A stretch of DNA of 64,000 bases from Eledone cirrhosa (lineage: Eukaryota). The stretch lies in the NCBI GenBank assembly GCA_964016885.1, contig OZ024746.1, forward strand, positions 61,132,001-61,196,000. Reading direction: 5' to 3'. Shown piece after piece: positions 17,484 through 60,987 of the stretch; the stretch's first letter is position 1; each line of letters begins with the position of its first letter. The translations under genes were made by a program, and so were the position numbers. The notes beneath the pieces were generated by a model that searched no databases, was not told the DNA's origin, and saw nothing but the letters and a program-made list of their open reading frames with translations.

Positions 17484-19011
17484 ATTTTGTATAGTCTTAT
17501 ATATATACATATATTTATATACATATATTTATATACATATATTTAAATACATATATATATACCTTCTATGGTCATATAGCTTCTAATTGAATGGGACGAA
17601 GCATTGGTGGCGGGTTGGTGTAATGGTAACATATTGGTCCGGCAAACCAAAAATGTGGATTCGTGTCCCCTGTACGTCAATACTCATCCTTTTGTTTTCC
17701 ATTCAGAGGGTTTTTTTTAAATCCCAACTAACAGACTAATTCTATTTAGTCAAATACGGCGTAAGCACATGTTACTACCTAATTTCCAAATTCGCTAGCC
17801 GTTTGTAAACAAAGCCTGCTTTGTGTCTCCCTATTTATATACTCATAAAATAATCTTTTTAATCACCCTTATCGATAGTTATATTTTTTGACATTGGTGA
17901 AACGTACGTAAAACAAATAAAATGTTATAATTCTCTCCATAACTGATGGTTTGTCCTACCAGATGGCCTTTTATTCAGTTGCGGTGAAGAATATTTATAT
18001 TTAATGCAGCTGCAGCGTCAAACACTGCCTGGTTTCAAATATCTCACGCTACTTATTCCAACGCCACACACTGTGTTTTTACACGTGTTATAACTATTTG
18101 GATATAGTCGACATTTTAAAATCTCATTAAAAAAAAAAAAAATCATTTTAGAGTTAGAGATTATAAAAAACTTATATTTAAATATGTAAAGGCGGGTGAC
18201 TGAGTGGTTAGAGATTTGGATTTGTAATCGTGAGGTTGTGAGTTCGATTCCCGGACCGGGCTATGCGTTATGTCATTGAGCAAGACACTTTATTTCACGT
18301 TGATCCTTCTGCCTGGATTTGTGATCGGTAGATAGTATTAGTAATTAGAAAGACCAATGGAAACATTGTTTCCTCGCTCCGATTTGACGAGCATTCGTTA
18401 AGATCTGGGATCTTGTCGATCGACTATGGATGTTGAATATATTCATTTATGTACAACTTGTATGGAAATTAAAGCAGCTGACTTTTACGTAGTAATGTGA
18501 CACCTTAGTCCAGGACCTACCCCAACCAAATAATACAGCAGTATCTTCCACCCCTTGCTTGTCCATAGCCATCATTTTGTACATCATATGCCTGCCTATA
18601 GCCGAACTGGTAACATCGTGTTTCAAACTATGCGAGCAAATCAAAGACAAAACAAAAAAAAAAAACATATTACACCTTAACACCAATACATCAAATGATT
18701 ATTACGCAACCGCTTTGATGTCTTCGAAATGCTCATAACAGGATTATATAATAAACAGAGAATACAGAAAACTGTTTCTCTTCTTTATAATATCAACTGT
18801 CCGTCTAATATCTTATAGGTTATACCTTAAGTTACCCACATTGTGGAGTGCTTACGCCTGTTTACACGATAGTCGGTCGATTAATTGATCAACCAAGGTA
18901 TTTTTTCCTTTGGAATAATTATGCATATACCATATGAAACTGTATTTTCCAGGAGATAACCTTGGATGCTTTTGTTCGTTTGTCCTCAGTGATTTTCCAT
19001 ATGCAACGTTG

Positions 19012-20157: not shown

Positions 20158-20992
20158 TTTGAAAAGGGTATGTCTTGCTAAAAACACTTATTAGCAAGAC
20201 ATACCCTTTTCAAAGACCCCCCTGTATAGATAAGAAATGTATAACCTGTAAATTAAGCCCCCATATTAACTGTAAAACTAGAAATGTAGTATATAGCATA
20301 AGATGTACTGAAGGACAATGTAGAGACAAAAATATAGTGTACATAGGTGAGACAGCTCGTAGTATAGGGGAACGGATAAACGAACACTGGCGAGACCTTC
20401 AAGATAGTAAAGAATCATCTGTACTCTACCAACATGCTAAAATAGAACACAAGGGTAAATTAGAGAACATAGAAATAAAAATAGAATCTACACACAGAAA
20501 AGACGCAATGTTTAGACAAATCACAGAGGCAATAAACATAAAAGAATTACAACCAAAATTAAATAGAAAACATGAGTGGAACAGCAACATCACAACTTAC
20601 AATTAAGGACAAAATGAAAACACACACACAGAACAAACAACCAACCAGTAACATGTAAATAAACAAATAAATAAACGAATACAAACACACACAGACACCC
20701 GGATGTGGCGCATGCGCAGACTGAGCACACAACACACACACAGAAACAAGATGGCGTAGGACAGAACAAAGGAGAGGCACAAAAGCAAAGAAAAGAATCC
20801 CCAGTCACTGAAGAGGTCACAGAATGTGTGACGAAAGAACTTTAACAATATATAAACAACCATCTGGTTGTGGAACCAACCAACCAACCGGAAATTTATA
20901 AATCCCTAAATTTATAAATTTATTATAATAAATTGAAGTGAAAGCAACTGGTGCGTGTGTTTCTTATTGGCAACATGACCCTCCCAAAGTAT

Positions 20993-20998
<6 letters not shown>
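20158..20998 (+). mobile_element. 3' fragment of a different Penelope-like element (GIY-YIG plus pLTR)
   Basis: ORF 20175-20606: CITC...CKTRNVVYSIRC...YIGETARSIGERINEH...H...EAINI...LN. 24-bp foldback at the 5' junction. Partial HHR CTGAAGA-g-gtcac...gtgac-GAAA at 20808-20836. Confidence 0.85.
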
Positions 20999-21026
<28 letters not shown>

Positions 21027-21029
<3 letters not shown>

Positions 21030-22941
21030 GAGGTTATATTTAAATTGTTGGGATTCAACAAGCTTAAAAATAGAATCTTCAAATCTAAAAAGAATCCACC
21101 TTCCAATAAACTATTAATGGAATTTGAAAATGAGATTATCTGTATCATACAAAATATTAAATTTAGGAAAAACCACTTTGTAGGCCATGATTACCTAAAA
21201 AGTCTCAAAAATAATATAGAAAACTTTGAAAAAACGGAAAAAATTCTTGTTAAATCAGATAAAACCAACAATCTTTACGGAATGCAAAAGGATAATTACA
21301 ATGATCTTATATTGAAAGAATTAAGGAAAAATTACAACAGAGCAGCCAATGATGACCTTGAAAAACTAAATACTGAAGCTTCTTATATAATGCAGGAATT
21401 AGGCATCGAAAATAGGACTCAACCCTTCATACCTAGGAAACCAAAAATTAATTTGAAGGACCATAAAATAAATTTTGAAATTGAATTACCAGTTAGATTG
21501 ATTGCACCATCTAAATCGGACCTTTGCATACTTAGCAAGAATATCAATATCTTATTTAAAATTATGGAATGGGACTAATGAAGTTATTGACTGGTTTAAG
21601 GACATTAAATATAAACATAACTATAAATTCATTCAATTGGATATTACTAATTATTACTCATCTATCACTCCTAATCTACTTAATAAAGCCCTTACATATG
21701 CATTTAAATATACAGATTTAACTAGCAATGAAATGCACATTATCTTAACTGCACGTAAAACATTAATTAAATTTAGCAACCACCTTTGGACTAGAGGAGA
21801 TAGGGATAACAATTTCGATATGACTATGGGGTCATCGGACTCGGCGCAATTAACGGATCTTGTGGGACTTTTTATTAACAATACTTTACATAGGAAAATA
21901 CCGGAGATGACCGGTGGTTTATATCGTGACGATATGCTATTGCTTATTGAAAATAATAATAATTGTGAAATAAATAGGAAAAGAAAAGAAATTATACAAT
22001 TTTTTAATAGCGTTAATCTTAAAGTAGAAGTAGAGAATAATTATAAAATAGTTAATTTTTTAGATGTAACTTTAAACCTTAATACTGGTCTTTATTATCC
22101 ATTTCATAAAATAAATGAGAATTTAAACTATGTTAACTTTAATTCCAATCACCCCAGATCCGTTAAAAACACTATTGTAAATTCTGTGCAGCAACGTATT
22201 TCTAGAATTTCAGCGAATAAAAATATATTTGAAGATAAAGCACAATATTATAACGAAGCGTTAAGTAGAGAAGGCTATAGTAATGAAATTAAATACATTG
22301 ACAATAAGGATGTGCCAATTAACCATAACTATAAATATAATTATAATAGGAAACCTTGCACTAACTCGAAAATCAAAAGAAAAAATAGAACTAGAAATAT
22401 ATTATGGTTCGCTCCCCCTTTCTCATTAAGTATTAAAACTCCTATCGCTAAATTCTTTTTTAAAGCTCTAGATAAGTACTTTCCTAAGACACAGATATTA
22501 CTCAATCTTTAATAGACATACTATTAAACTCTCATATTACACCACTATGAATTTAGCGCAGAATATTAATAGAATTAATAATAGAAACTTAAAACCTAAC
22601 CAGAATAGCATTAATACCTCTAGCAATATCCAATATAATGTTACGGCTCCCAATAATATGAATTCAGATAAATGTAATTGTAGAAATAAATCTAACTGTC
22701 CTCTAAATAATAATTGTTTAGTTAAAAATATTATACAATTGTAATGTCAAAACAAATGAAAACTCCTTTAACTATGTCGGCTCTACCTCCACAACTTCAA
22801 ATCTCGTTTTAATAACCATAAATGTTCCTTTACGAATATTGGTAAAAATCTTCAACTTCTCTATCTAACTTATTATGGGACTTAAAATCCAAGAATATTA
22901 ACTATTCTTTATTGTGGAATAGTTAATATTCTTGGATTTTA
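21027..22941 (+). mobile_element. Penelope-like element (probably Naiad-type), frameshifted and truncated: RT, Zn-finger, GIY-YIG
   Basis: ORF pieces 21045-21578, 21502-22512 and 22547-22744 with QLDITNYYSSI, MGSSDSAQLTDLVG, LYRDD, FLDV, CNC-x5-CPL-x3-CL and then YVGST. Begins with an inverted pLTR end (gcagaggttatattt...) next to (TA)n. Confidence 0.88.
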
Positions 22942-25784: not shown

Positions 25785-26115
25785 AAAAGGGTAAAGACCC
25801 CCTTCGGTCACGAAGGACCATGTGATTTACTCCTAGGCACAAGTCTGAGGCACAAGTCTGGGAAAGGTTGTTTGTGGAAGACCAGCAGTTGCCCATGCAT
25901 ACCAACCACCCCTCTCCACGCCACCGATGATGTCCAAGGGAAAGGTAATGGCCTATACGGCTTGACACCAGTGATGTCGCAACTAATTTCTACAGCTGAG
26001 TGGACAGGAGCAACGTGAAATAAAGTGTCTTGCTCAAGGACACAACGCATCAACCGGTCTGAGAATCGAACTCACAACCATACGATTGCAAGCCAAATGC
26101 TCTAACCACTAAGCT
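25785..26115 (-). mobile_element. Second tRNA-derived SINE family (CORE/V-like domain)
   Basis: tRNA-like head (tagcttagtggttagag...gagttcgattc) followed by gtgtccttgagcaagacactttatttcacgttgctcc. Relatives at ~3290-3560, 18190-18305 and 61530-61790. Confidence 0.7.
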
Positions 26116-26486
26116 ATATAATAGATATATAACACACAGTAACTCCTAAAGTAACATATATAAAACACATAACACACAAAATACTGTACACATATAAAAA
26201 AGTATATAACATATATATATAACATGTATACAACACATAATTGTTTCTACTTTTTGGCACAAGGCCAGCAATTATCCCAGTGTATTACTGGTACTTTATT
26301 TTATCGACCCCGTAAGGATGAAAGGCAAAGTTAACCTCGGCGGGATTTGAACTCAGTCCGTAAAGGGACGTAACTGTGCTGCAAAGCATGGCGTCCGACC
26401 CTCTACCGATACTGCCAATCCACCGTACAACACATAATTACATATAGTAAGACACATGATACAATATGGAGTTAGTTATCACTTAC

Positions 26487-27951: not shown

Positions 27952-28115
27952 CACAAACACACATGTATATACACTCATGCATAAGTGTGCATGTGTCTGT
28001 GTGTATGTGCGTGTGTGAGTTTGTTAGTGTATGTAAAGATGAAGGTAACGGTGGTTTTAGTGGTGATGTTAGTGTGTTGTAATCGAAATAATATTGGCAG
28101 ACGAGCTGTTGATAC

Positions 28116-28691
28116 CTTTCACAGGAGTACTGACAGAAATAATATGTGAGAATGGTGTCAGCACCCGCTTCACTTGTTCCTTTTTGTCTGTTGAGATTAA
28201 TTCTTCAACTGGCATCGCCTCATTGCCTCTGCTATTTATATTTTGACTTCGCGCATTTTCCTCAAGAAATCCATGCTTGTAATTCTGTTTCTTTTCCGCA
28301 TCAATACGTGCACGTATGCGAATGTAATAATTCGTACTCGTTTGTAAGTGGTTCAGCTCAACGAACACGTCTTCTGGTGAGGATATATTTAGCGAAACCT
28401 GTTGCTTTTTTGAGAAGAAATTTGGCCCTAAAACGTCTGCAATTTTCATCGGTTGTATTTGAAAATGGCGGTCATTTGATGATCCAATTAACCATTTCGT
28501 TGATGAAGACACATTAAACAACACGCTCGACCATATAACGTTTGTGGAGTTGTGGGTTTGTATTGCGTATTGGATTTCATAACTGGTGAGTTGTTTACGA
28601 AGCTGGTTGGAAAAAGGAGGCGTAAAGCTAATGATCAAAGAGCTTTGGTTTTTTACATAGGCGGACAAATTTGACACGGCATTCGGATTAA
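28116..28691 (-). CDS. Exon: FN3 domain with long loop insertions
   Basis: ttatttcag acceptor, gtatca donor, 576 nt open, phase 1-1. PNAVSNLSAYVKNQSSLIISFTPP...YEIQY...LNHLQTSTNYYIRIRA...SHIISVSTP. Confidence 0.85.
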
Positions 28692-28789
28692 CTGAAATAA
28701 TAAAGAAAAATCAATGCAAAAAAAAAAGAATTATATAAAATATAGAATCCTTCCATTCTTCTATACATACATACACACACCCATACACA

Positions 28790-29040: not shown

Positions 29041-32000
29041 GGGATACATGATATGAAGGTTAAAAAAAACACTTGTGAATAGTGTAGTTTTAAATCAACA
29101 TATGAAAAGTAATTTAAGATTGATGTGTGATATTTTAAAAAAAAAAATGAGGGGTGGGGGAGGGTGAAAAAGAGGAGGAGATGAGAGTAAAGAATGGTGG
29201 GGGAGGAGTATAATAAGGAAGGATGAGATAGAAGGAGAGATGGGTGATAGAAAGAGAGAGATAGCCTTTATAACTGAGAAAAAATAGATATTGTTTCACA
29301 GAGAGAGGTTAAAAAGCCGTTGGAAGATAATATATAATTTAAAAGAATTTGAAAATAAAAAGTTGATGAAGAGAAAAAAAAATTAAGAATAATATTAAAT
29401 TAAGGTTTGTATATTGAAGGGTTTAATAATATGTGCGATGAAAAGAAATTGTTAATATGTATTATTAAAATAAAAATATTAATGTTTTAAGGATATAAGG
29501 TGAAAAGAAGTAGAAGAGTGGATGAATTATGAATTTAGAGGAATTAGTTAGTGTTTAAGTTTGTTTTTATGTAATGTAATATGTATGCGTAATATATGTA
29601 AATAGTTTGTTTGCAAATGAGCGCAGAAAGCAAAGAAGAAAATAGTGTTTAAGGAAGAGAAGACTCTAACATCAAAATATATATGTTTATGAAGTATTTT
29701 CTAATGGTAATAATATAATGTAATAAAGGAGATTAGTTAGGGTTTAAGTTTGTTTTTATGTATTGTGATATGTAATATGTAAAAGTCAGACGAGCATGAA
29801 AGGGAGAAAAATATAATGAACTGAACTGAGGAGGAATAATCTAACGTCAAAAAAATGTTTGTTTACGAAGGATTTTTAAAGGAAATGCTATAAAGTATTT
29901 AAAAGGTAATAAATAATTTTTATGGCCAATGATATGAAGAAAGATGGAAGAGTGGATATGTTGTGGTGAGTAATAATAAGAATTGAGAAGTATTTAGGAA
30001 GAAAAAGTACAGATTAGAGGTTAGAAATTAAAAGAAAAGAGGAAGAAAGGAAAGTGATAAATAGGAATGATATAGAATGAGTAACTAGTATTATATAATG
30101 TATAATAAATAATATTGAAATAAGGTAGAAAGATGGGTATATTTTTAAAGAAATATATATATAAGCCTTTGAGAAAAAGGATTTTAAACTGGTAAAGTAT
30201 TAGATATTAGCTGTATACTTTATAGAATGTTCTGTGGAATTTATGCAAGCAGAGAGAAAATAAGTCAGTGCGTCTATTTATTATAGAATCTAAATTAGAT
30301 ATAATGGTAAATTTCTCACATAACAAAGATTACACGTTCTGGATAGGGAGGCATTCAAGTAGGGAGAGGCAGAACAAACTTTCCTCCAAGAGATGTTATA
30401 GTTAATATTTTTGTCTTTCAAGGACCATATGAGTTCTGAGAGTACCGTGTTGGTTCTTTTAAGTTGGTATTTAAAAGAATTGTGATTATATAAACGAGCT
30501 TTGAAGGAGGTGGAAGTGGAGCCGAAATAGGTAAAGGAATTGGTATCAGTTATAACTTTACATTCATAGACTAAGTTTTTTTCAAGACAATGGTTGTTGA
30601 GAGGACATTTATTTTTAACAGGGCAATTACAATTGCGATTAGAGAAATTAACAGAGTTATTAACAAGTGACTTAGTGTTATCTATAGGAGGAATTGGATT
30701 AGAGAAGTTATTTGCGATAGGAATAATAGTTTCCTGATTTAGATTGGTATTAAGAACATTTGACGAAGTTACGTTTGACGTCGCATTTGAGTTTGCAGAA
30801 ACTAGCCTAGAGTTAACAATGACGTCGGGAGTACTACTGCTATTATTATGACATTCAGTGTTGGAAGGAAGTGATTTAGTATTTAATATTTTATTGTTGT
30901 GTTTAGAGATGTTGGAGGAGGTGGAATAGGAAAATGTTATTGTATGTTTGTTAAATATTTTACTATAGATATGTGAGGGAGGGAAGCATTTATTTAAGGC
31001 ACTAAAGAATAATTTAGGAATATTATTATTAATAGAAATAGAGAAAGGAACATTATACCAGATTATATTTTTGTATCTAGGTCTTTTATTTAAGTTATTG
31101 GAATGATCATAATTAATTATTTTACTGTAAGATCTTCTATGATTGGTTTCTTTACTGTATTTGATTTTATCAGGATAACCGGCTTTAGAAAGCGCATTAT
31201 TATAGTAATTGGCGTTAGCATCAAAGATATTTTTTATTAGATGATAGGTTTGATATTCTTTTTCCAATTTTACTAACTATAGCATTTTTAATATTAGTGG
31301 GGTGGTTAGATTTAAAATTAACAATTTAGATTCTCATTGTTTTTATGGTAAGGGTAATATAGGCCAGTGTCAAGATTGAGGGATATATCCAAGAAGTTAG
31401 CTAGTTTGACGTTGTTATCAAATTCAATTTTTAAGTTATGTTGGTTAAAGAGATCACGTATATTGTTCTTAATAATATTAAGGTTAACTATATTGCAATT
31501 TAAGATAGTAAAAAGCCCATCGTCACGATAAATTCCACAGCGAAGTTGAGGAATTTTCCGATTTAAAGAATTCAAAATAAAGATACCAATTAAATCAGTC
31601 AATTGTGATGAATCGGATGCACCCATTGTAATGTCAAAGTTGTTGGAGGTATCAGCTCTAGTCCAGTATTCATTGTTGAATTCTAAGATGGTTTTTCGTG
31701 CGGTGAGAATGATGTGAAGTTCATCTGTGGTGATGTCAGAATATTTAAAAGCGAAAGATATAGCATTGTTGAGAAGTGAGGGCGAAATAGAAGAATAGTA
31801 GCTGGCAATATCAAATTGAACACATTTTTGTTTGTTTTTCTTATTCAGGTTGTTGAACCAGCCAATTACTTCAATTACTTTTTTTTTTTTTCTTCATCAA
31901 CTTTTTATTTTCAAATTCTTTTAAATTATATATTATCTTCCAACGGCTTTTTAACCTCTCTCTGTGAAACAATATCTATTTTTTCTCAGTTATAAAGGCT

Positions 32001-36332: not shown

Positions 36333-36915
36333 CGGCGATGAATTAGTTTAGCGAGGTTTTTTATATGAAATCGTGTGTCGAAACAAATATTGTTATACTT
36401 GGGGAGGGTCATATTTGTGTAATATTGCCAGAATTAATAACAGAACACAGAACACATAATATAATATTTTAGCATGGCAATTTACATTCAAAGATTAAAG
36501 TCATATTCGTAAACTGCCAATGTTGTATTTTAACTTTAATTTTGTTTTAATTTTAATATGACTTTAATCTTTGAATGTAAATTGCCATGCTAAAATATTA
36601 TAATGGATGTCAACCCACTGTGCATCGATATATACATATGTTTCTGTATGTCTCTTGTGTTGGAAAGGAGGTCATGTATGTAAACAATCATTGAAAAATT
36701 GCTCCGAAGACTCCAAACCTCGGTTTGGAAGAAACAATTGTAAGCTAATAAATAGTTTGAACAGAACTTTGATTCATGTAATTTCTATATAACTGCTCTG
36801 TAGAACAACTGATGTTATTACATTGAGCTATTTATCTTACTGGTAATAAGGTAGTAATAAATTACTGTCTTTCACTGTTTAGGGTTTAAAATATATATAA
36901 CTATATATGATGTAT

Positions 36916-36961
<46 letters not shown>

Positions 36962-37026
36962 GTATATGTATATATATATATGTATATATACATATATATG
37001 TATATATATATATGTATATATATATG

Positions 37027-37108
<82 letters not shown>

Positions 37109-37116
37109 CATATATA

Positions 37117-37392
<276 letters not shown>

Positions 37393-37450
37393 TATATATA
37401 ATATATATATATATAATATATATATATATATAATATATATATATATATAT

Positions 37451-40400
37451 GTGAATATAGACATAGAATATTCGAAAATATTCTGTATGTTTATAATAAA
37501 CATTTTGAAGACCTAATCGCTATAGAATAGAATACGTCACGTATTACAATTAGATTCTCGATAAAAGCAAGGGAAGTAATCTACGCGTTTCATTCTCGTT
37601 AGAAATCATCAGGACTACATATCCAGTGCTTTTATCGAGAATGACACAGCTAGAGACTTATAGAATACTTAGCTGTGTACAGGAACTGGTTTGAAAGAGC
37701 GGTTGCCGGTCCGGCAGAAATTAGAAATTGGAATAAATGCTCTGAAATAGCGATATATATGTGAATATAGACATAGAATATTCGAAAATATTCTGTATGT
37801 TTATAATAAACATTTTGAAGACCTAATCGCTATAGAATAGAATACGTCACGTATTACAATTAGATTCTCGATAAAAGCAAGGGAAGTAATCTACGCGTTT
37901 CATTCTCGTTAGAAATCATCAGGACTACATATCCAGTGCTTTTATCGAGAATGACACAGCTAGAGACTTATAGAATACTTAGCTGTGTACAGGAACTGGT
38001 TTGAAAGAGCGGTTGCCGGTCCGGCAGAAATTAGAAATTGGAATAAATGCTCTGAAATAGCGATATATATGTGAATATAGACATAGAATATTCGAAAATA
38101 TTCTGTATGTTTATAATAAACATTTTGAAGACTTAATCGCTATAGAATAGAATACGTCACGTATTACAATTAGATTCTCGATAAAAGCAAGGGAAGTAAT
38201 CTACGCGTTTCATTCTCGTTAGAAATCATCAGGACTACATATCCAGTGCTTTTATCGAGAATGACACAGCTAGAGACTTATAGAATACTTAGCTGTGTAC
38301 AGGAACTGGTTTGAAAGAGCGGTTGCCGGTCCGGCAGAAATTAGAAATTGGAATAAATGCTCTGAAATAGCGATATATATGTGAATATAGACATAGAATA
38401 TTCGAAAATATTCTGTATGTTTATAATAAACATTTTGAAGACCTAATCGCTATAGAATAGAATACGTCACGTATTACAATTAGATTCTCGATAAAAGCAA
38501 GGGAAGTAATCTACGCGTTTCATTCTCGTTAGAAATCATCAGGACTACATATCCAGTGCTTTTATCGAGAATGACACAGCTAGAGACTTATAGAATACTT
38601 AGCTGTGTACAGGAACTGGTTTGAAAGAGCGGTTGCCGGTCCGGCAGAAATTAGAAATTGGAATAAATGCTCTGAAATAGCGATATATATGTGAATATAG
38701 ACATAGAATATTCGAAAATATTCTGTATGTTTATAATAAACATTTTGAAGACCTAATCGCTATAGAATAGAATACGTCACGTATTACAATTAGATTCTCG
38801 ATAAAAGCAAGGGAAGTAATCTACGCGTTTCATTCTCGTTAGAAATCATCAGGACTACATATCCAGTGCTTTTATCGGGAATGACACAGCTAGAGACTTA
38901 TAGAATACTTAGCTGTGTACAGGAACTGGTTTGAAAGAGCGGTTGCCGGTCCGGCAGAAATTAGAAATTGGAATAAATGCTCTGAAATAGCGATATATAT
39001 GTGAATATAGACATAGAATATTCGAAAATATTCTGTATGTTTATAATAAACATTTTGAAGACCTAATCGCTATAGAATAGAATACGTCACGTATTACAAT
39101 TAGATTCTCGATAAAAGCAAGGGAAGTAATCTACGCGTTTCATTCTCGTTAGAAATCATCAGGACTACATATCCAGTGCTTTTATCGAGAATGACACAGC
39201 TAGAGACTTATAGAATACTTAGCTGTGTACAGGAACTGGTTTGAAAGAGCGGTTGCCGGTCCGGCAGAAATTAGAAATTGGAATAAATGCTCTGAAATAG
39301 CGATATATATGTGAATATAGACATAGAATATTCGAAAATATTCTGTATGTTTATAATAAACATTTTGAAGACCTAATCGCTATAGAATAGAATACGTCAC
39401 GTATTACAATTAGATTCTCGATAAAAGCAAGGGAAGTAATCTACGCGTTTCATTCTCGTTAGAAATCATCAGGACTACATATCCAGTGCTTTTATCGAGA
39501 ATGACACAGCTAGAGACTTATAGAATACTTAGCTGTGTACAGGAACTGGTTTGAAAGAGCGGTTGCCGGTCCGGCAGAAATTAGAAATTGGAATAAATGC
39601 TCTGAAATAGCGATATATATGTGAATATAGACATAGAATATTCGAAAATATTCTGTATGTTTATAATAAACATTTTGAAGACCTAATCGCTATAGAATAG
39701 AATACGTCACGTATTACAATTAGATTCTCGATAAAAGCAAGGGAAGTAATCTACGCGTTTCATTCTCGTTAGAAATCATCAGGACTACATATCCAGTGCT
39801 TTTATCGAGAATGACACAGCTAGAGACTTATAGAATACTTAGCTGTGTACAGGAACTGGTTTGAAAGAGCGGTTGCCGGTCCGGCAGAAATTAGAAATTG
39901 GAATAAATGCTCTGAAATAGCGATATATATGTGAATATAGACATAGAATATTCGAAAATATTCTGTATGTTTATAATAAACATTTTGAAGACCTAATCGC
40001 TATAGAATAGAATACGTCACGTATTACAATTAGATTCTCGATAAAAGCAAGGGAAGTAATCTACGCGTTTCATTCTCGTTAGAAATCATCAGGACTACAT
40101 ATCCAGTGCTTTTATCGGGAATGACACAGCTAGAGACTTATAGAATACTTAGCTGTGTACAGGAACTGGTTTGAAAGAGCGGTTGCCGGTCCGGCAGAAA
40201 TTAGAAATTGGAATAAATGCTCTGAAATAGCGATATATATGTGAATATAGACATAGAATATTCGAAAATATTCTGTATGTTTATAATAAACATTTTGAAG
40301 ACCTAATCGCTATAGAATAGAATACGTCACGTATTACAATTAGATTCTCGATAAAAGCAAGGGAAGTAATCTACGCGTTTCATTCTCGTTAGAAATCATC

Positions 40401-41217
40401 AGGACTACATATCCAGTGCTTTTATCGAGAATGACACAGCTAGAGACTTATAGAATACTTAGCTGTGTACAGGAACTGGTTTGAAAGAGCGGTTGCCGGT
40501 CCGGCAGAAATTAGAAATTGGAATAAATGCTCTGAAATAGCGATATATATGTGAATATAGACATAGAATATTCGAAAATATTCTGTATGTTTATAATAAA
40601 CATTTTGAAGACCTAATCGCTATAGAATAGAATACGTCACGTATTACAATTAGATTCTCGATAAAAGCAAGGGAAGTAATCTACGCGTTTCATTCTCGTT
40701 AGAAATCATCAGGACTACATATCCAGTGCTTTTATCGAGAATGACACAGCTAGAGACTTATAGAATACTTAGCTGTGTACAGGAACTGGTTTGAAAGAGC
40801 GGTTGCCGGTCCGGCAGAAATTAGAAATTGGAATAAATGCTCTGAAATAGCGATATATATGTGAATATAGACATAGAATATTCGAAAATATTCTGTATGT
40901 TTATAATAAACATTTTGAAGACCTAATCGCTATAGAATAGAATACGTCACGTATTACAATTAGATTCTCGATAAAAGCAAGGGAAGTAATCTACGCGTTT
41001 CATTCTCGTTAGAAATCATCAGGACTACATATCCAGTGCTTTTATCGAGAATGACACAGCTAGAGACTTATAGAATACTTAGCTGTGTACAGGAACTGGT
41101 TTGAAAGAGCGGTTGCCGGTCCGGCAGAAATTAGAAATTGGAATAAATGCTCTGAAATAGCGATATATATGTGAATATAGACATAGAATATTCGAAAATA
41201 TTCTGTATGTTTATAAT
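37451..41217 (-). mobile_element. Tandem array of 310-bp units (12 full plus ~47 bp), each with a type-I hammerhead ribozyme; candidate non-LTR retrozyme
   Basis: Units start at 37451+310n. Only three substitutions seen (38132, 38878, 40118). Minus strand of each unit reads gtagtc-CTGATGA-tttct aacg agaat-GAAA-cgcg-TA-gattac. The left end abuts (AT)n. Confidence 0.9.
37576..37618 (-). ncRNA. Type-I hammerhead ribozyme (unit 1; repeated every 310 bp to 40986-41028)
   Basis: Intact core CUGAUGA/GAAA/GUA. Stem I gtagtc/gattac, stem II ttct/agaa, palindromic stem III (CGCG). 16-bp outer helix pairs 37554-37569 with 37627-37642. Confidence 0.88.
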
Positions 41218-41460
41218 ATCGCGTGACTATCTCCCCCTCCGCCTTTTGGGATTCTTTCTCACGTCGTGTAGACGCGTTCTTGAGACTAGTAAAATGAGGT
41301 ATCCTCTTGATAAGTCGGCAGACCTCGCAGAGACTCTATATCTTTATGATGTATTGTTTTTGTTTATGCCACGAAACTACGTAGTCGAGGAATCTAGGAG
41401 CAGTTTAGGTATGATACATTTTATTACTTATTATATCTAAATGTTTCTTCTCTCTTCATA

Positions 41461-41528
<68 letters not shown>

Positions 41529-41852
41529 AAATGATAACAAAGACGATTAGTTACTCCTTCATTACATTTACTGGTAGGTGACGCGCGTTTCGCAACTGAT
41601 CAGCTCAAGGTTCGATCTGTATCAATCCTACCCGACTCAATGATCGGCAGCTCGACGGACCCTTTGAGCTGATCAGTGGCGAAACGCGCGTCACCTACCA
41701 ATAAATGTAATGAAGGAGTAACCAATCGTCCTTCTTATCCTTTCAATATATTACACTCTGTATTGCTCTACACCTCAACACAGAAGTGAACCTAAACATC
41801 GAGTGCTCTCCCCGGTGAACCTGCAGTAACTCCAAGTTACACCGCCTGGATA

Positions 41853-59453: not shown

Positions 59454-60987
59454 CTAGCTGGTCGGCCCGGCTGGCGCCCGGGTAGGTATACCGGCATTTT
59501 ATCTTTTCAGGAATCCCCCCCTACAAAGATACCGCACGCCCTCTCAAGTCAGCGACGAGGGGGGGGGGGGGGATTTAACGTGCTCTGATGTTGGGTTTGA
59601 ATAGTTTTTAGGATTCCCCAGTTCAGCAGTCAGTACGTTAAAGAAAATTGATAGTTACAACAATAAAGGCTGAACAGAGAACAAATTTTTAACAAACAAT
59701 AATTTGTACAACCATAATGGAAATTCCAAGTAACAGAACATCTTTAAATTACATTGTTAGAGCCTCAGAGTATACAATATTTTTTGTTCGGCCCTCCGGA
59801 GCAAAGATGAAGAGATTGTTTGGCGAGCTCACCCTAGAGCATCCTACATACAATTGACCATGGGAGAAGCACTGATTTCGTAGATCGTTTCGCGGAGAAG
59901 CTCTGTAGACGTTGACCTCTGGACACTCTTGTTAGGAACAGGTAAGCTGTAGTGACTTAGAGGCCTACCACCAATCTCCAGGACACTGTTTTCAAGACAA
60001 ATGAGCGCCTCATTGAAAATTGGATTGTGTTTGCGTGTGCGGTGGAGGATGTCCTCAGCTAGACTTTCACGGTGGTTGTTCCACAGTGCGAGAGGGTCGG
60101 CGAGATCGCAGTTGTGCAGCATAATAGCAAACAGTTTTCGCAGCTGAGAAGGGACTTTAGCATTTGCTGCTTCTTGCAGGGTGAGGTGCCAATGGCTGTC
60201 ATCGTGTAACATACCACGCATCTGGCAAGCCAAACGGTAAGTGGAACATTGTTGGCCATTGATGGTTCTCAGATCTTGGAAAGACTGTGGTCCTCTAACC
60301 TCGAACAGTAACAATGACGATAAGCCGTCTGTGCTTTCATGAAATAAATAGGTTTTTGTTTTTGTGTATGCAAAAATATCTGTAAACGAATATATATAAA
60401 TATATATATTAAAATAACAGATTAAAGTTTAAGCAAATAATCGCTGCTTTCACCCTTAACGGGATCTTCTGAAACTTAAAAAATCCGTCCGTGAACGCAG
60501 AAGTAAATATTTCGAAAAACGTTATCTAATGCAGACAATCAGTTATACAGAGACATATTATAAGGGCGCTACGTTATAGCTATGTATATATCTAAAAAGA
60601 CAGGCTAAGTGAAAGAGGGGAATGTTGTGCGACGTCATAAGAAAAAGTGAGGAATGACGTATAACCGGAAGTGTTGACATTTGAAATTTTAAAGAAGTGA
60701 ATATTTAAATAATTGTTTCTACTTTAGGCACAAGGCCAGCAATTGCCCAGTGCATTACTGGTACTTTATTTTATCGTACCAGTAATGCACTGGGTAATTG
60801 CTGGCCTTGTGCCTAAAGTGAATATTTAAATAATGTTTTTAATCTTTTAACAAAATTCAGTAGACAAAAATACCCTTATTTTTTTACTTGGAAAAAGTTA
60901 CATCTATGGTGCAAATTTGGTGCCGTTTGGTCCAGCCGTTTTGGCGGAAAGTTTACTTCCATACGGCCGTCAGCTTTATAGTATAGA
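59454..60987 (-). mobile_element. Internally deleted non-autonomous Helitron
   Basis: 5' TC (60987) and 3' CTAG (59454), inserted between A and T. GC-rich subterminal hairpin at ~59466-59482. RepHel pieces VRGPQSFQDLRTING...YRLAC...QLRKLFAIML and the helicase C-terminus CSRVSSPNNLFIFAPEGRTKNIVYSEAL. Confidence 0.9.

Follow-up and report, generated by a model that had tools for sequence, protein, structure and literature searches.

The window analysed in this study (the whole 64,000-nucleotide stretch of Eledone cirrhosa DNA) contains a tandem array of a 310-bp unit, here called family A, which abuts a (TA)n-rich microsatellite at one end and a second hammerhead element, family B, at the other (Table 1). 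The initial annotation had claimed 12 copies of this unit, a figure that was reproduced by TRF (12.2 copies, period 310, 99% matches). The left boundary of 37451 given there falls within an ambiguous stretch from 37443 to 37452; the array begins 8 nt further left if TA-like bases are counted. Units are numbered so that position 1 is the first base 3' of the predicted ribozyme cut. On this scale, the array has its 3' end on the left, at unit position 130-139 (termed the "near" end), and its truncated 5' end is at position 84. The units are nearly identical and non-coding, as had been stated: the 12 units contain three substitutions relative to unit 2 (at 38133, 38878, and 40118), all of them outside the catalytic core, and no open reading frame of at least 120 aa lies within the array. 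The monomer has a GC content of 34.5% (107 of 310 nt are G or C) and is without a terminal repeat. Units 5 and 9 both carry 254T>C, and units 5-8 are identical to units 9-12, which suggests either a later four-unit duplication or an assembly slip.

Table 1. Features of the window discussed in the text, in order of position.
Feature	Position	Strand	Basis or remark
Weak tRNA-like match	17609-17679	plus	barely above Rfam cut-off
Separate broken Penelope-like GIY-YIG fragment	20163-20606	plus	Pfam PF01541
Broken Hydra-type Penelope RT/endonuclease copy	20979-22512	plus	
Weak tRNA-like match	26059-26116	minus	barely above Rfam cut-off
Fibronectin type III frame	28069-28710	minus	PF00041, E 2e-7
Broken Hydra-type Penelope RT/endonuclease copy	30290-31893	minus	
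(TA)n-rich target microsatellite	36891-37450	.	abuts array 3' end
Family A retrozyme array, 12.18 x 310 bp	37443-41218	minus	TRF and unit comparison
First of 12 type I hammerheads, including 16-bp closing helix	37554-37642	minus	descriptor scan and folding; repeats every 310 bp
Core CUGAUGA of first hammerhead	37612-37606	minus	
Palindromic helix III of first hammerhead	37588-37583	minus	
Predicted cut-to-cut monomer, 310 nt	37582-37891	minus	11 such between 12 sites
3-nt microhomology at head-to-head A/B junction	41216-41218	.	family A 5' end (position 84)
5'-truncated family B arm, 247 bp, unit positions ~426 to 79	41219-41465	plus	ends at one of the fixed 3' ends of family B
Family B type I hammerhead, U3-A8 core (UUGAUAA 41307-41313)	41302-41392	plus	stem II has a long insert and helix III is palindromic; cut predicted after 41386
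(TA)n tract	41464-41526	.	TRF; at family B arm 3' end
~200-bp element with long terminal inverted repeats	41540-41745		
194-aa frame, presumably resembling a Helitron helicase fragment	59844-60428	minus	no Pfam match

A descriptor scan identified the elements of a type I hammerhead in each minus-strand unit (CUGAUGA, stem II, GAAA, ACGCGU, A17, and a 6-bp stem I), and the internal loop and 16-bp closing helix reported earlier were found extending stem I in every copy. Read from the sequence, the first predicted cut falls at 37582/37581, as previously placed, and recurs every 310 nt up to 40992/40991. The same descriptor was matched by one of 2,000 dinucleotide shuffles of the unit, and the monomer fold has a z-score of -3.9. 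An Infernal search with the Rfam models, the check that had been proposed, returned no hammerhead at the gathering score, nor at E of 10 or below over 36500-38200. The earlier description of an intact ribozyme with three helices is correct for the core, present in 12 of 12 units, but not for helix III, which consists of A15.1-U16.1 alone, capped by the palindrome CGCG; in addition, the 4-bp helix II starts with a U·U mismatch. Given these two features, cleavage likely requires two units. In folding calculations, forcing helix III shut within one unit changed the energy from -29.8 to -24.6 kcal/mol (a cost of approximately 5 kcal/mol), and two co-folded cores paired with each other through a 6-bp helix III, at -68.7 kcal/mol compared with 2 x -31.3 kcal/mol. 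Axolotl hammerheads with these two weaknesses are reported to cut poorly alone and far better as dimers (PMC7229834); as a point against, only one of nine Xenopus retrozyme dimers is reported to cut in vitro (bioRxiv 10.64898/2026.07.22.740005). The family A ribozyme is predicted, with good probability, to cut as a dimer, and would belong to the weak, dimer-dependent kind rather than to that of self-sufficient three-helix monomers. Among 85 aligned family A loci (see below), six substitutions are fixed within the closing helix or stem I, and all of them preserve pairing, and 287U>A mends the U·U pair in 14 loci; two-sided compensation was found at none of 29 pairs in seven variants. The 14 core positions show no fixed change, which is not significant given that approximately 1.2 would be expected by chance.

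Several other features were observed in the window. Beyond the 12 hammerheads of the array, the descriptor scan found 14 more hammerhead-like motifs of at least five kinds, spanning positions 1905-62000 (for example at 2433, 5870, 6337, 17422, 29040, 32226, 32496, 35302, 41897, 43139, 49454, and 54143); some of these lie in Penelope terminal repeats, and five have an ACUAGU helix III palindrome. In each arm of the ~200-bp inverted-repeat element there is a hammerhead-like string that lacks stem I and whose core is of the G8C type (CUGAUCA); these strings are probably not ribozymes. The fibronectin type III frame, on the same strand as the array sense, is possibly a host exon, and the array could be located in an intron. 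The two weak tRNA-like matches are probably SINE heads.

A genome-wide copy search found 4,204 exact matches to a 37-nt core pattern, compared to none for the reversed control. This pattern skips units with common variants at positions 284, 287, 294, and 295, so the family is larger than the count, and we estimate a total of approximately 10,000 units or more. When only the forward strand was counted, patterns for the array ends gave 647 near ends and 738 far ends (reverse-strand counts were inflated by several matches per site), which suggests approximately 1,500-2,000 near-identical insertions. The genomic features of a young, dispersed family of animal non-LTR retrozymes, the class proposed in the initial annotation, are all present: unit size and GC content fall within the range of that class (~150-450 bp, GC below 50%), the unit has neither coding sequence nor LTR, and the ends abut (TA)n in the 85 loci. 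Both flanks are (TA)n, a sequence in which a target-site duplication cannot be discerned. Two other assignments were rejected: an autonomous Penelope-like element, as the unit is without an RT plus GIY-YIG ORF, and a plant-type LTR retrozyme (a type III hammerhead in each of two LTRs), as the topology is type I and the units are tandem. Family A is thus very probably an animal non-LTR retrozyme, a known class, for which cleavage and circles are predicted from the DNA.

The closest parallels are the axolotl retrozymes HHR_Amex1 and HHR_Amex2 and newt satellite 2 (Cervera and de la Pena 2020, PMC7229834), which likewise consist of tandem 170-400-nt units of low GC content with one type I hammerhead each. 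HHR_Amex1 shares the one-pair helix III with a palindromic tetraloop, and HHR_Amex2 the U·U at the base of helix II. Circles have been demonstrated for those retrozymes, whereas family A is known here from DNA sequence; conversely, the consulted parts of that article describe no back-to-back arms, paired fixed 3' ends, or editing signal. Vertebrate non-LTR retrozymes, which are comparable to family A in unit size and copy number, have been described as non-autonomous Penelope derivatives (Li, Clavereau, and Pollet 2026, bioRxiv 10.64898/2026.07.22.740005). As far as the available text of that study shows, its evidence consists of co-occurrence and terminal-repeat homology, local amplification is suggested, and molluscs were unsampled; for family A the evidence comes from the geometry of the junctions, and a search of 20 Penelope loci and the window showed no homologous repeat. 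A literature search whose scope excluded most subscription journals found no paper on cephalopod retrozymes, two-armed retrozyme insertions, or retrozyme editing.

The insertions of family A have a distinctive architecture. Of 10 loci chosen by their ribozyme core, nine consist of two arrays placed back to back and one is single-armed; in the nine, the two 3' ends, one at unit position 128-139 and the other at 163-170, lie in (TA)n or TA-rich repeats. Among the matches listed for the first 128 Mb of C1, there were 63 near and 67 far ends, 94 of which form 47 outward-facing pairs. All 47 pairs combine a near with a far end, at unit positions ~130 and ~165, in a search equally able to reveal near-near or far-far pairs. 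Most of the unpaired ends (35 of 36 inspected) had a complementary arm with a variant end. Among the 85 aligned loci, which were mostly found via end patterns and on one chromosome, 68 are two-armed (66 near plus far, two with one unclassifiable end, and none with like ends) and 17 are one-armed, including two with a tiny far arm and two that are not readable to the end. This set omits L134 (overlapping L133), L147 (in a duplicated region overlapping L079), and L090 (family C, see below); L150, considered as a possible mixed-family insertion, proved to be an ordinary two-armed locus with a damaged end. Both arms are multimeric, with a median of 3.8 units. Their 3' ends fall at 115-142 or 155-175, never at the cut site and with no poly(A), and their 5' ends are scattered across the whole unit. 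At the 66 inner junctions counted, after three more rows were dropped, the arms overlap by 1-5 nt in 32 cases and by 16 nt in two, are blunt in nine, and are separated by inserted bases in 23.

The suggestion that Penelope-like elements mobilise these repeats receives direct support from the junctions: the 3' ends occupy two fixed sites separated by approximately 35 nt, the arms are back to back, and the targets are (TA)n. The purified Penelope protein of the anole (Poseidon PAc), a predicted dimer, nicks both strands of AT-rich DNA and begins cDNA synthesis inside its RNA, at two neighbouring sites that delimit a tail of 30-40 nt (PMC11167929). Penelope-like elements are reported to have (TA)n targets, arms that are inverted and 5'-truncated, and a tail at one of their ends (PMC8557442). 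In family A, the ends at ~130 and ~165 match the 30-40-nt spacing of two 3' termini, and an inverted 5'-truncated arm is present at 68 of 85 loci; in the window, the inverted arm belongs to another family. Internal starts at two sites 30-40 nt apart, inverted 5'-truncated arms, an AT-rich or (TA)n target, and a hammerhead are common to family A, the anole element (PMC11167929), and the Hydra, Naiad, and Neptune clades (PMC8557442). In contrast to these elements, family A has no ORF, and its entire element is the 310-nt unit repeated in both arms; moreover, its strict pairing of one near with one far end is stronger than the "often at one end" described for Penelope-like elements (PMC8557442). 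Non-autonomous Chlamys elements, such as MRC1, are also Penelope passengers with multicopy head-to-tail insertions; they differ in that their 3' ends resemble those of autonomous partners and that canonical hammerheads are missing from most Chlamys (PMC8557442). Based on the junctions, we consider it highly likely that a Penelope-type enzyme wrote the family A insertions.

Penelope copies are abundant in this genome: an RT fragment from the window gave 53,610 first-look candidates, of which 120 were scored. One copy (L052) has a 743-aa frame with the motifs of the Hydra clade (RWR for RWK, DKT, and CxCX5C; clade motifs as given in PMC8557442), and copies of its terminal repeat stop in (TA)n at two preferred sites approximately 85 nt apart. 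Pfam did not recognise the Penelope ORF, and its homologs are unnamed except for one with a misleading name. The L052 element has no sequence in common with family A, and no autonomous element similar to the family A unit was found among 20 loci of one Penelope family and in the window. Matches at L066 and L069 were rejected as terminal repeats, being neighbouring insertions of family A and family C, respectively. Family C is a 316-nt two-armed hammerhead repeat (L090:2908-3755, on C25) with a U3-A8 core and a ribozyme unlike that of family A. It is approximately 75% identical to family A over positions 69-212 of the A unit, a region that spans both end sites and may be regarded as the best candidate for an RT-binding element.

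The nature of the template can be approached through variants. The 85 loci comprise 34 haplotypes, yet of 107 sites with a variant fixed in one arm, 105 have it fixed in the opposite arm too, which indicates that both arms derive from one template. Both exceptions involve 276A>G, a change fixed on four backgrounds; at L081 the near arm carries G throughout, and in the far arm A gives way to G after four units. Of three sample-private variants searched genome-wide, only 232T>C was truly private, with 10 matches, of which eight account for every unit of L137 and two are isolated units in arrays of other haplotypes; since no other array carries it, there is no multimeric parent in this assembly. 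The variant 158A>G fills three arrays on two backgrounds, and 210C>A defines a subfamily with 324 matches. A>G accounts for eight of 27 fixed substitutions but only four of 73 single-unit substitutions (p = 0.003), compared to three and 10, respectively, for T>C. The 73 single-unit changes were counted in approximately 0.23 Mb after 30 nt were trimmed from each arm end; the untrimmed count of 149 was inflated by junction noise. This A>G excess would be expected if edited RNA had been copied. It is fairly probable that the template was a single-unit circular RNA, as predicted from these patterns.

There are several potential alternatives to this reading. In the one that survives best, the same Penelope-type enzyme with the same two start sites would have copied either a multimeric transcript that had stayed uncut or a circle of several units, with the hammerhead as a passenger or acting at another stage. 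In vitro, the anole enzyme worked mainly on uncut RNA and did not require its own ribozyme (PMC11167929), and the family A ribozyme is weak. At L128 and L138 a variant is restricted to the first-made unit of both arms, hence in the same unit register, a pattern more easily reconciled with a multimeric template common to the two arms than with a monomer circle. In addition, 210C>A has many uniform arrays as potential parents; the single mosaic array examined was not the parent in the cut register, and a parent unit was identified for no insertion. However, a new variant would still have to pass through a one-unit bottleneck to fill an array, and 232T>C occurs in no other array of the assembly, although a haploid assembly could miss the parent. 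Two further variants fill both arms of L153, as seen in the sample, and mosaic insertions are few in the sample even though long mosaic arrays exist (L154-L156, L133). On balance, we regard a multimeric template as rather improbable.

It is much less probable that a single remnant of a Penelope terminal repeat was inserted and then expanded in place by slippage or unequal exchange, as in the model of Li, Clavereau, and Pollet (2026). Xenopus retrozymes do resemble Penelope terminal repeats (bioRxiv 10.64898/2026.07.22.740005), and the four-unit duplication suggested by 254T>C in units 5 and 9 would fit this model. Very long arrays are also mosaics with repeated variant blocks: the arms of L154-L156 (C1, near 217.8 Mb) reach approximately 60 units and those of L133/L134 at least 29, showing growth after insertion. 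Against such an origin, both arms are multimeric, the same variants occur in every unit, and single-unit changes are few, so the repeats arrived with the insertion; furthermore, no Penelope ORF is attached to the unit. Local expansion accounts for later growth rather than for the origin of the arrays. Less probable still is LINE-style copying of linear, ribozyme-cut monomers from their 3' ends with repeated template jumps. Small insertions beside the cut site are fixed in six of 85 loci, as such copying might leave, but no arm has its 3' end at the cut site or a poly(A), and the joint between units is either exact or altered identically in all units of an insertion. In the 311-nt variants (L094, L106, L108, L113, L143, and L140), every unit has one additional base next to the cut site, which could be a scar of ligation or of the RT crossing the joint. 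That the array is an assembly artefact has a negligible probability, since 85 loci with differing flanks, arm lengths, and haplotypes share one architecture, and the identity of units 5-8 and 9-12, where copy number depends on the assembly, puts at most the count (12 versus 8) in doubt.

The locus in the window departs from the usual architecture. The initial annotation overlooked the second hammerhead element, fused to the family A array at 41219. The locus is single-armed for family A, with the near arm present; because the far arm is missing here, the mechanism at this locus is read from its relatives. The position facing the near arm is occupied by the inverted family B arm. Family B is a 593-nt non-coding unit with 1,526 exact matches and two ends, at 76-79 and 243-246; it has no alignable sequence in common with family A, and the fold of its hammerhead alone is not significant (z = -1.4). 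The A and B arms may have been inserted together, and in favour of this possibility their orientation, the microhomology, and the outer ends at fixed sites in (TA)n are those of ordinary insertions. Moreover, of the 12 other single-arm loci, 11 have a TA-type repeat in the place taken here by the family B arm. On the other hand, the arms of an insertion normally come from one template, both families target the same (TA)n tracts (they lie 1 kb apart in L071), and both 5' ends lie at TA-like bases. The A-B junction is absent from the other 84 family A loci and from 34 family B loci (some overlapping), and no junction-spanning match was found among 40 scored of 237 candidates elsewhere. A comparison of ages involves few events, with one private change in the 247 bp of the family B arm versus two events in the 3,776 bp of family A. 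We consider sequential insertion of A and B into one (TA)n tract the likely course of events and co-insertion unlikely.

The interpretation that we judge probable overall is that the 12.2-copy array is a young, abundant, non-coding retrozyme, written into (TA)n by a Penelope-type RT that copied a single-unit, probably circular RNA, and that its hammerhead is of a predicted dimer-cutting kind. A tandem array would be transcribed, and neighbouring hammerheads would pair their ACGCGU palindromes to form helix III and cut the transcript every 310 nt; the monomers would then be ligated to circles, as in coral, mussel, and axolotl. A Penelope-like protein would nick (TA)n, and cDNA would start at the two observed end sites, ~130 and ~165, one on each side of the break. 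Each cDNA would travel around one template a variable number of times, in keeping with the uniform variants observed, and the two cDNAs would be joined head to head, often via the 1-5 nt of microhomology seen at the junctions. A more specific version, in which a Penelope-type RT dimer loads onto two fixed internal sites, primes a cDNA from either side of a (TA)n break, and rolls around a small RNA circle whose A-to-I edits become fixed in the genome, has slightly better than an even chance in our view. The same version with the further clause that the two subunits here, as a rare case, carried different retrozyme RNAs and fused two families in a single event is doubtful.

The return of retrozymes into DNA, including the copying of circles by a Penelope enzyme, has been proposed but not demonstrated in the studies available (PMC7229834; bioRxiv 10.64898/2026.07.22.740005), and family A offers unusually clear evidence on how a member of this class is copied. 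A family of near-identical insertions also yields exact predictions regarding the enzyme class, the two start sites on the RNA, the single template of both arms, and the choice between circle and multimer. Internal initiation explains how an endless RNA can serve as a template. If the rolling-circle reading is true, these insertions would record in the genome how an animal circular RNA is reverse transcribed by the rolling-circle route. Should the A>G excess reflect editing, RNA editing would feed heritable change into family A. Co-insertion, if true, would provide a route by which ribozyme modules are shuffled.
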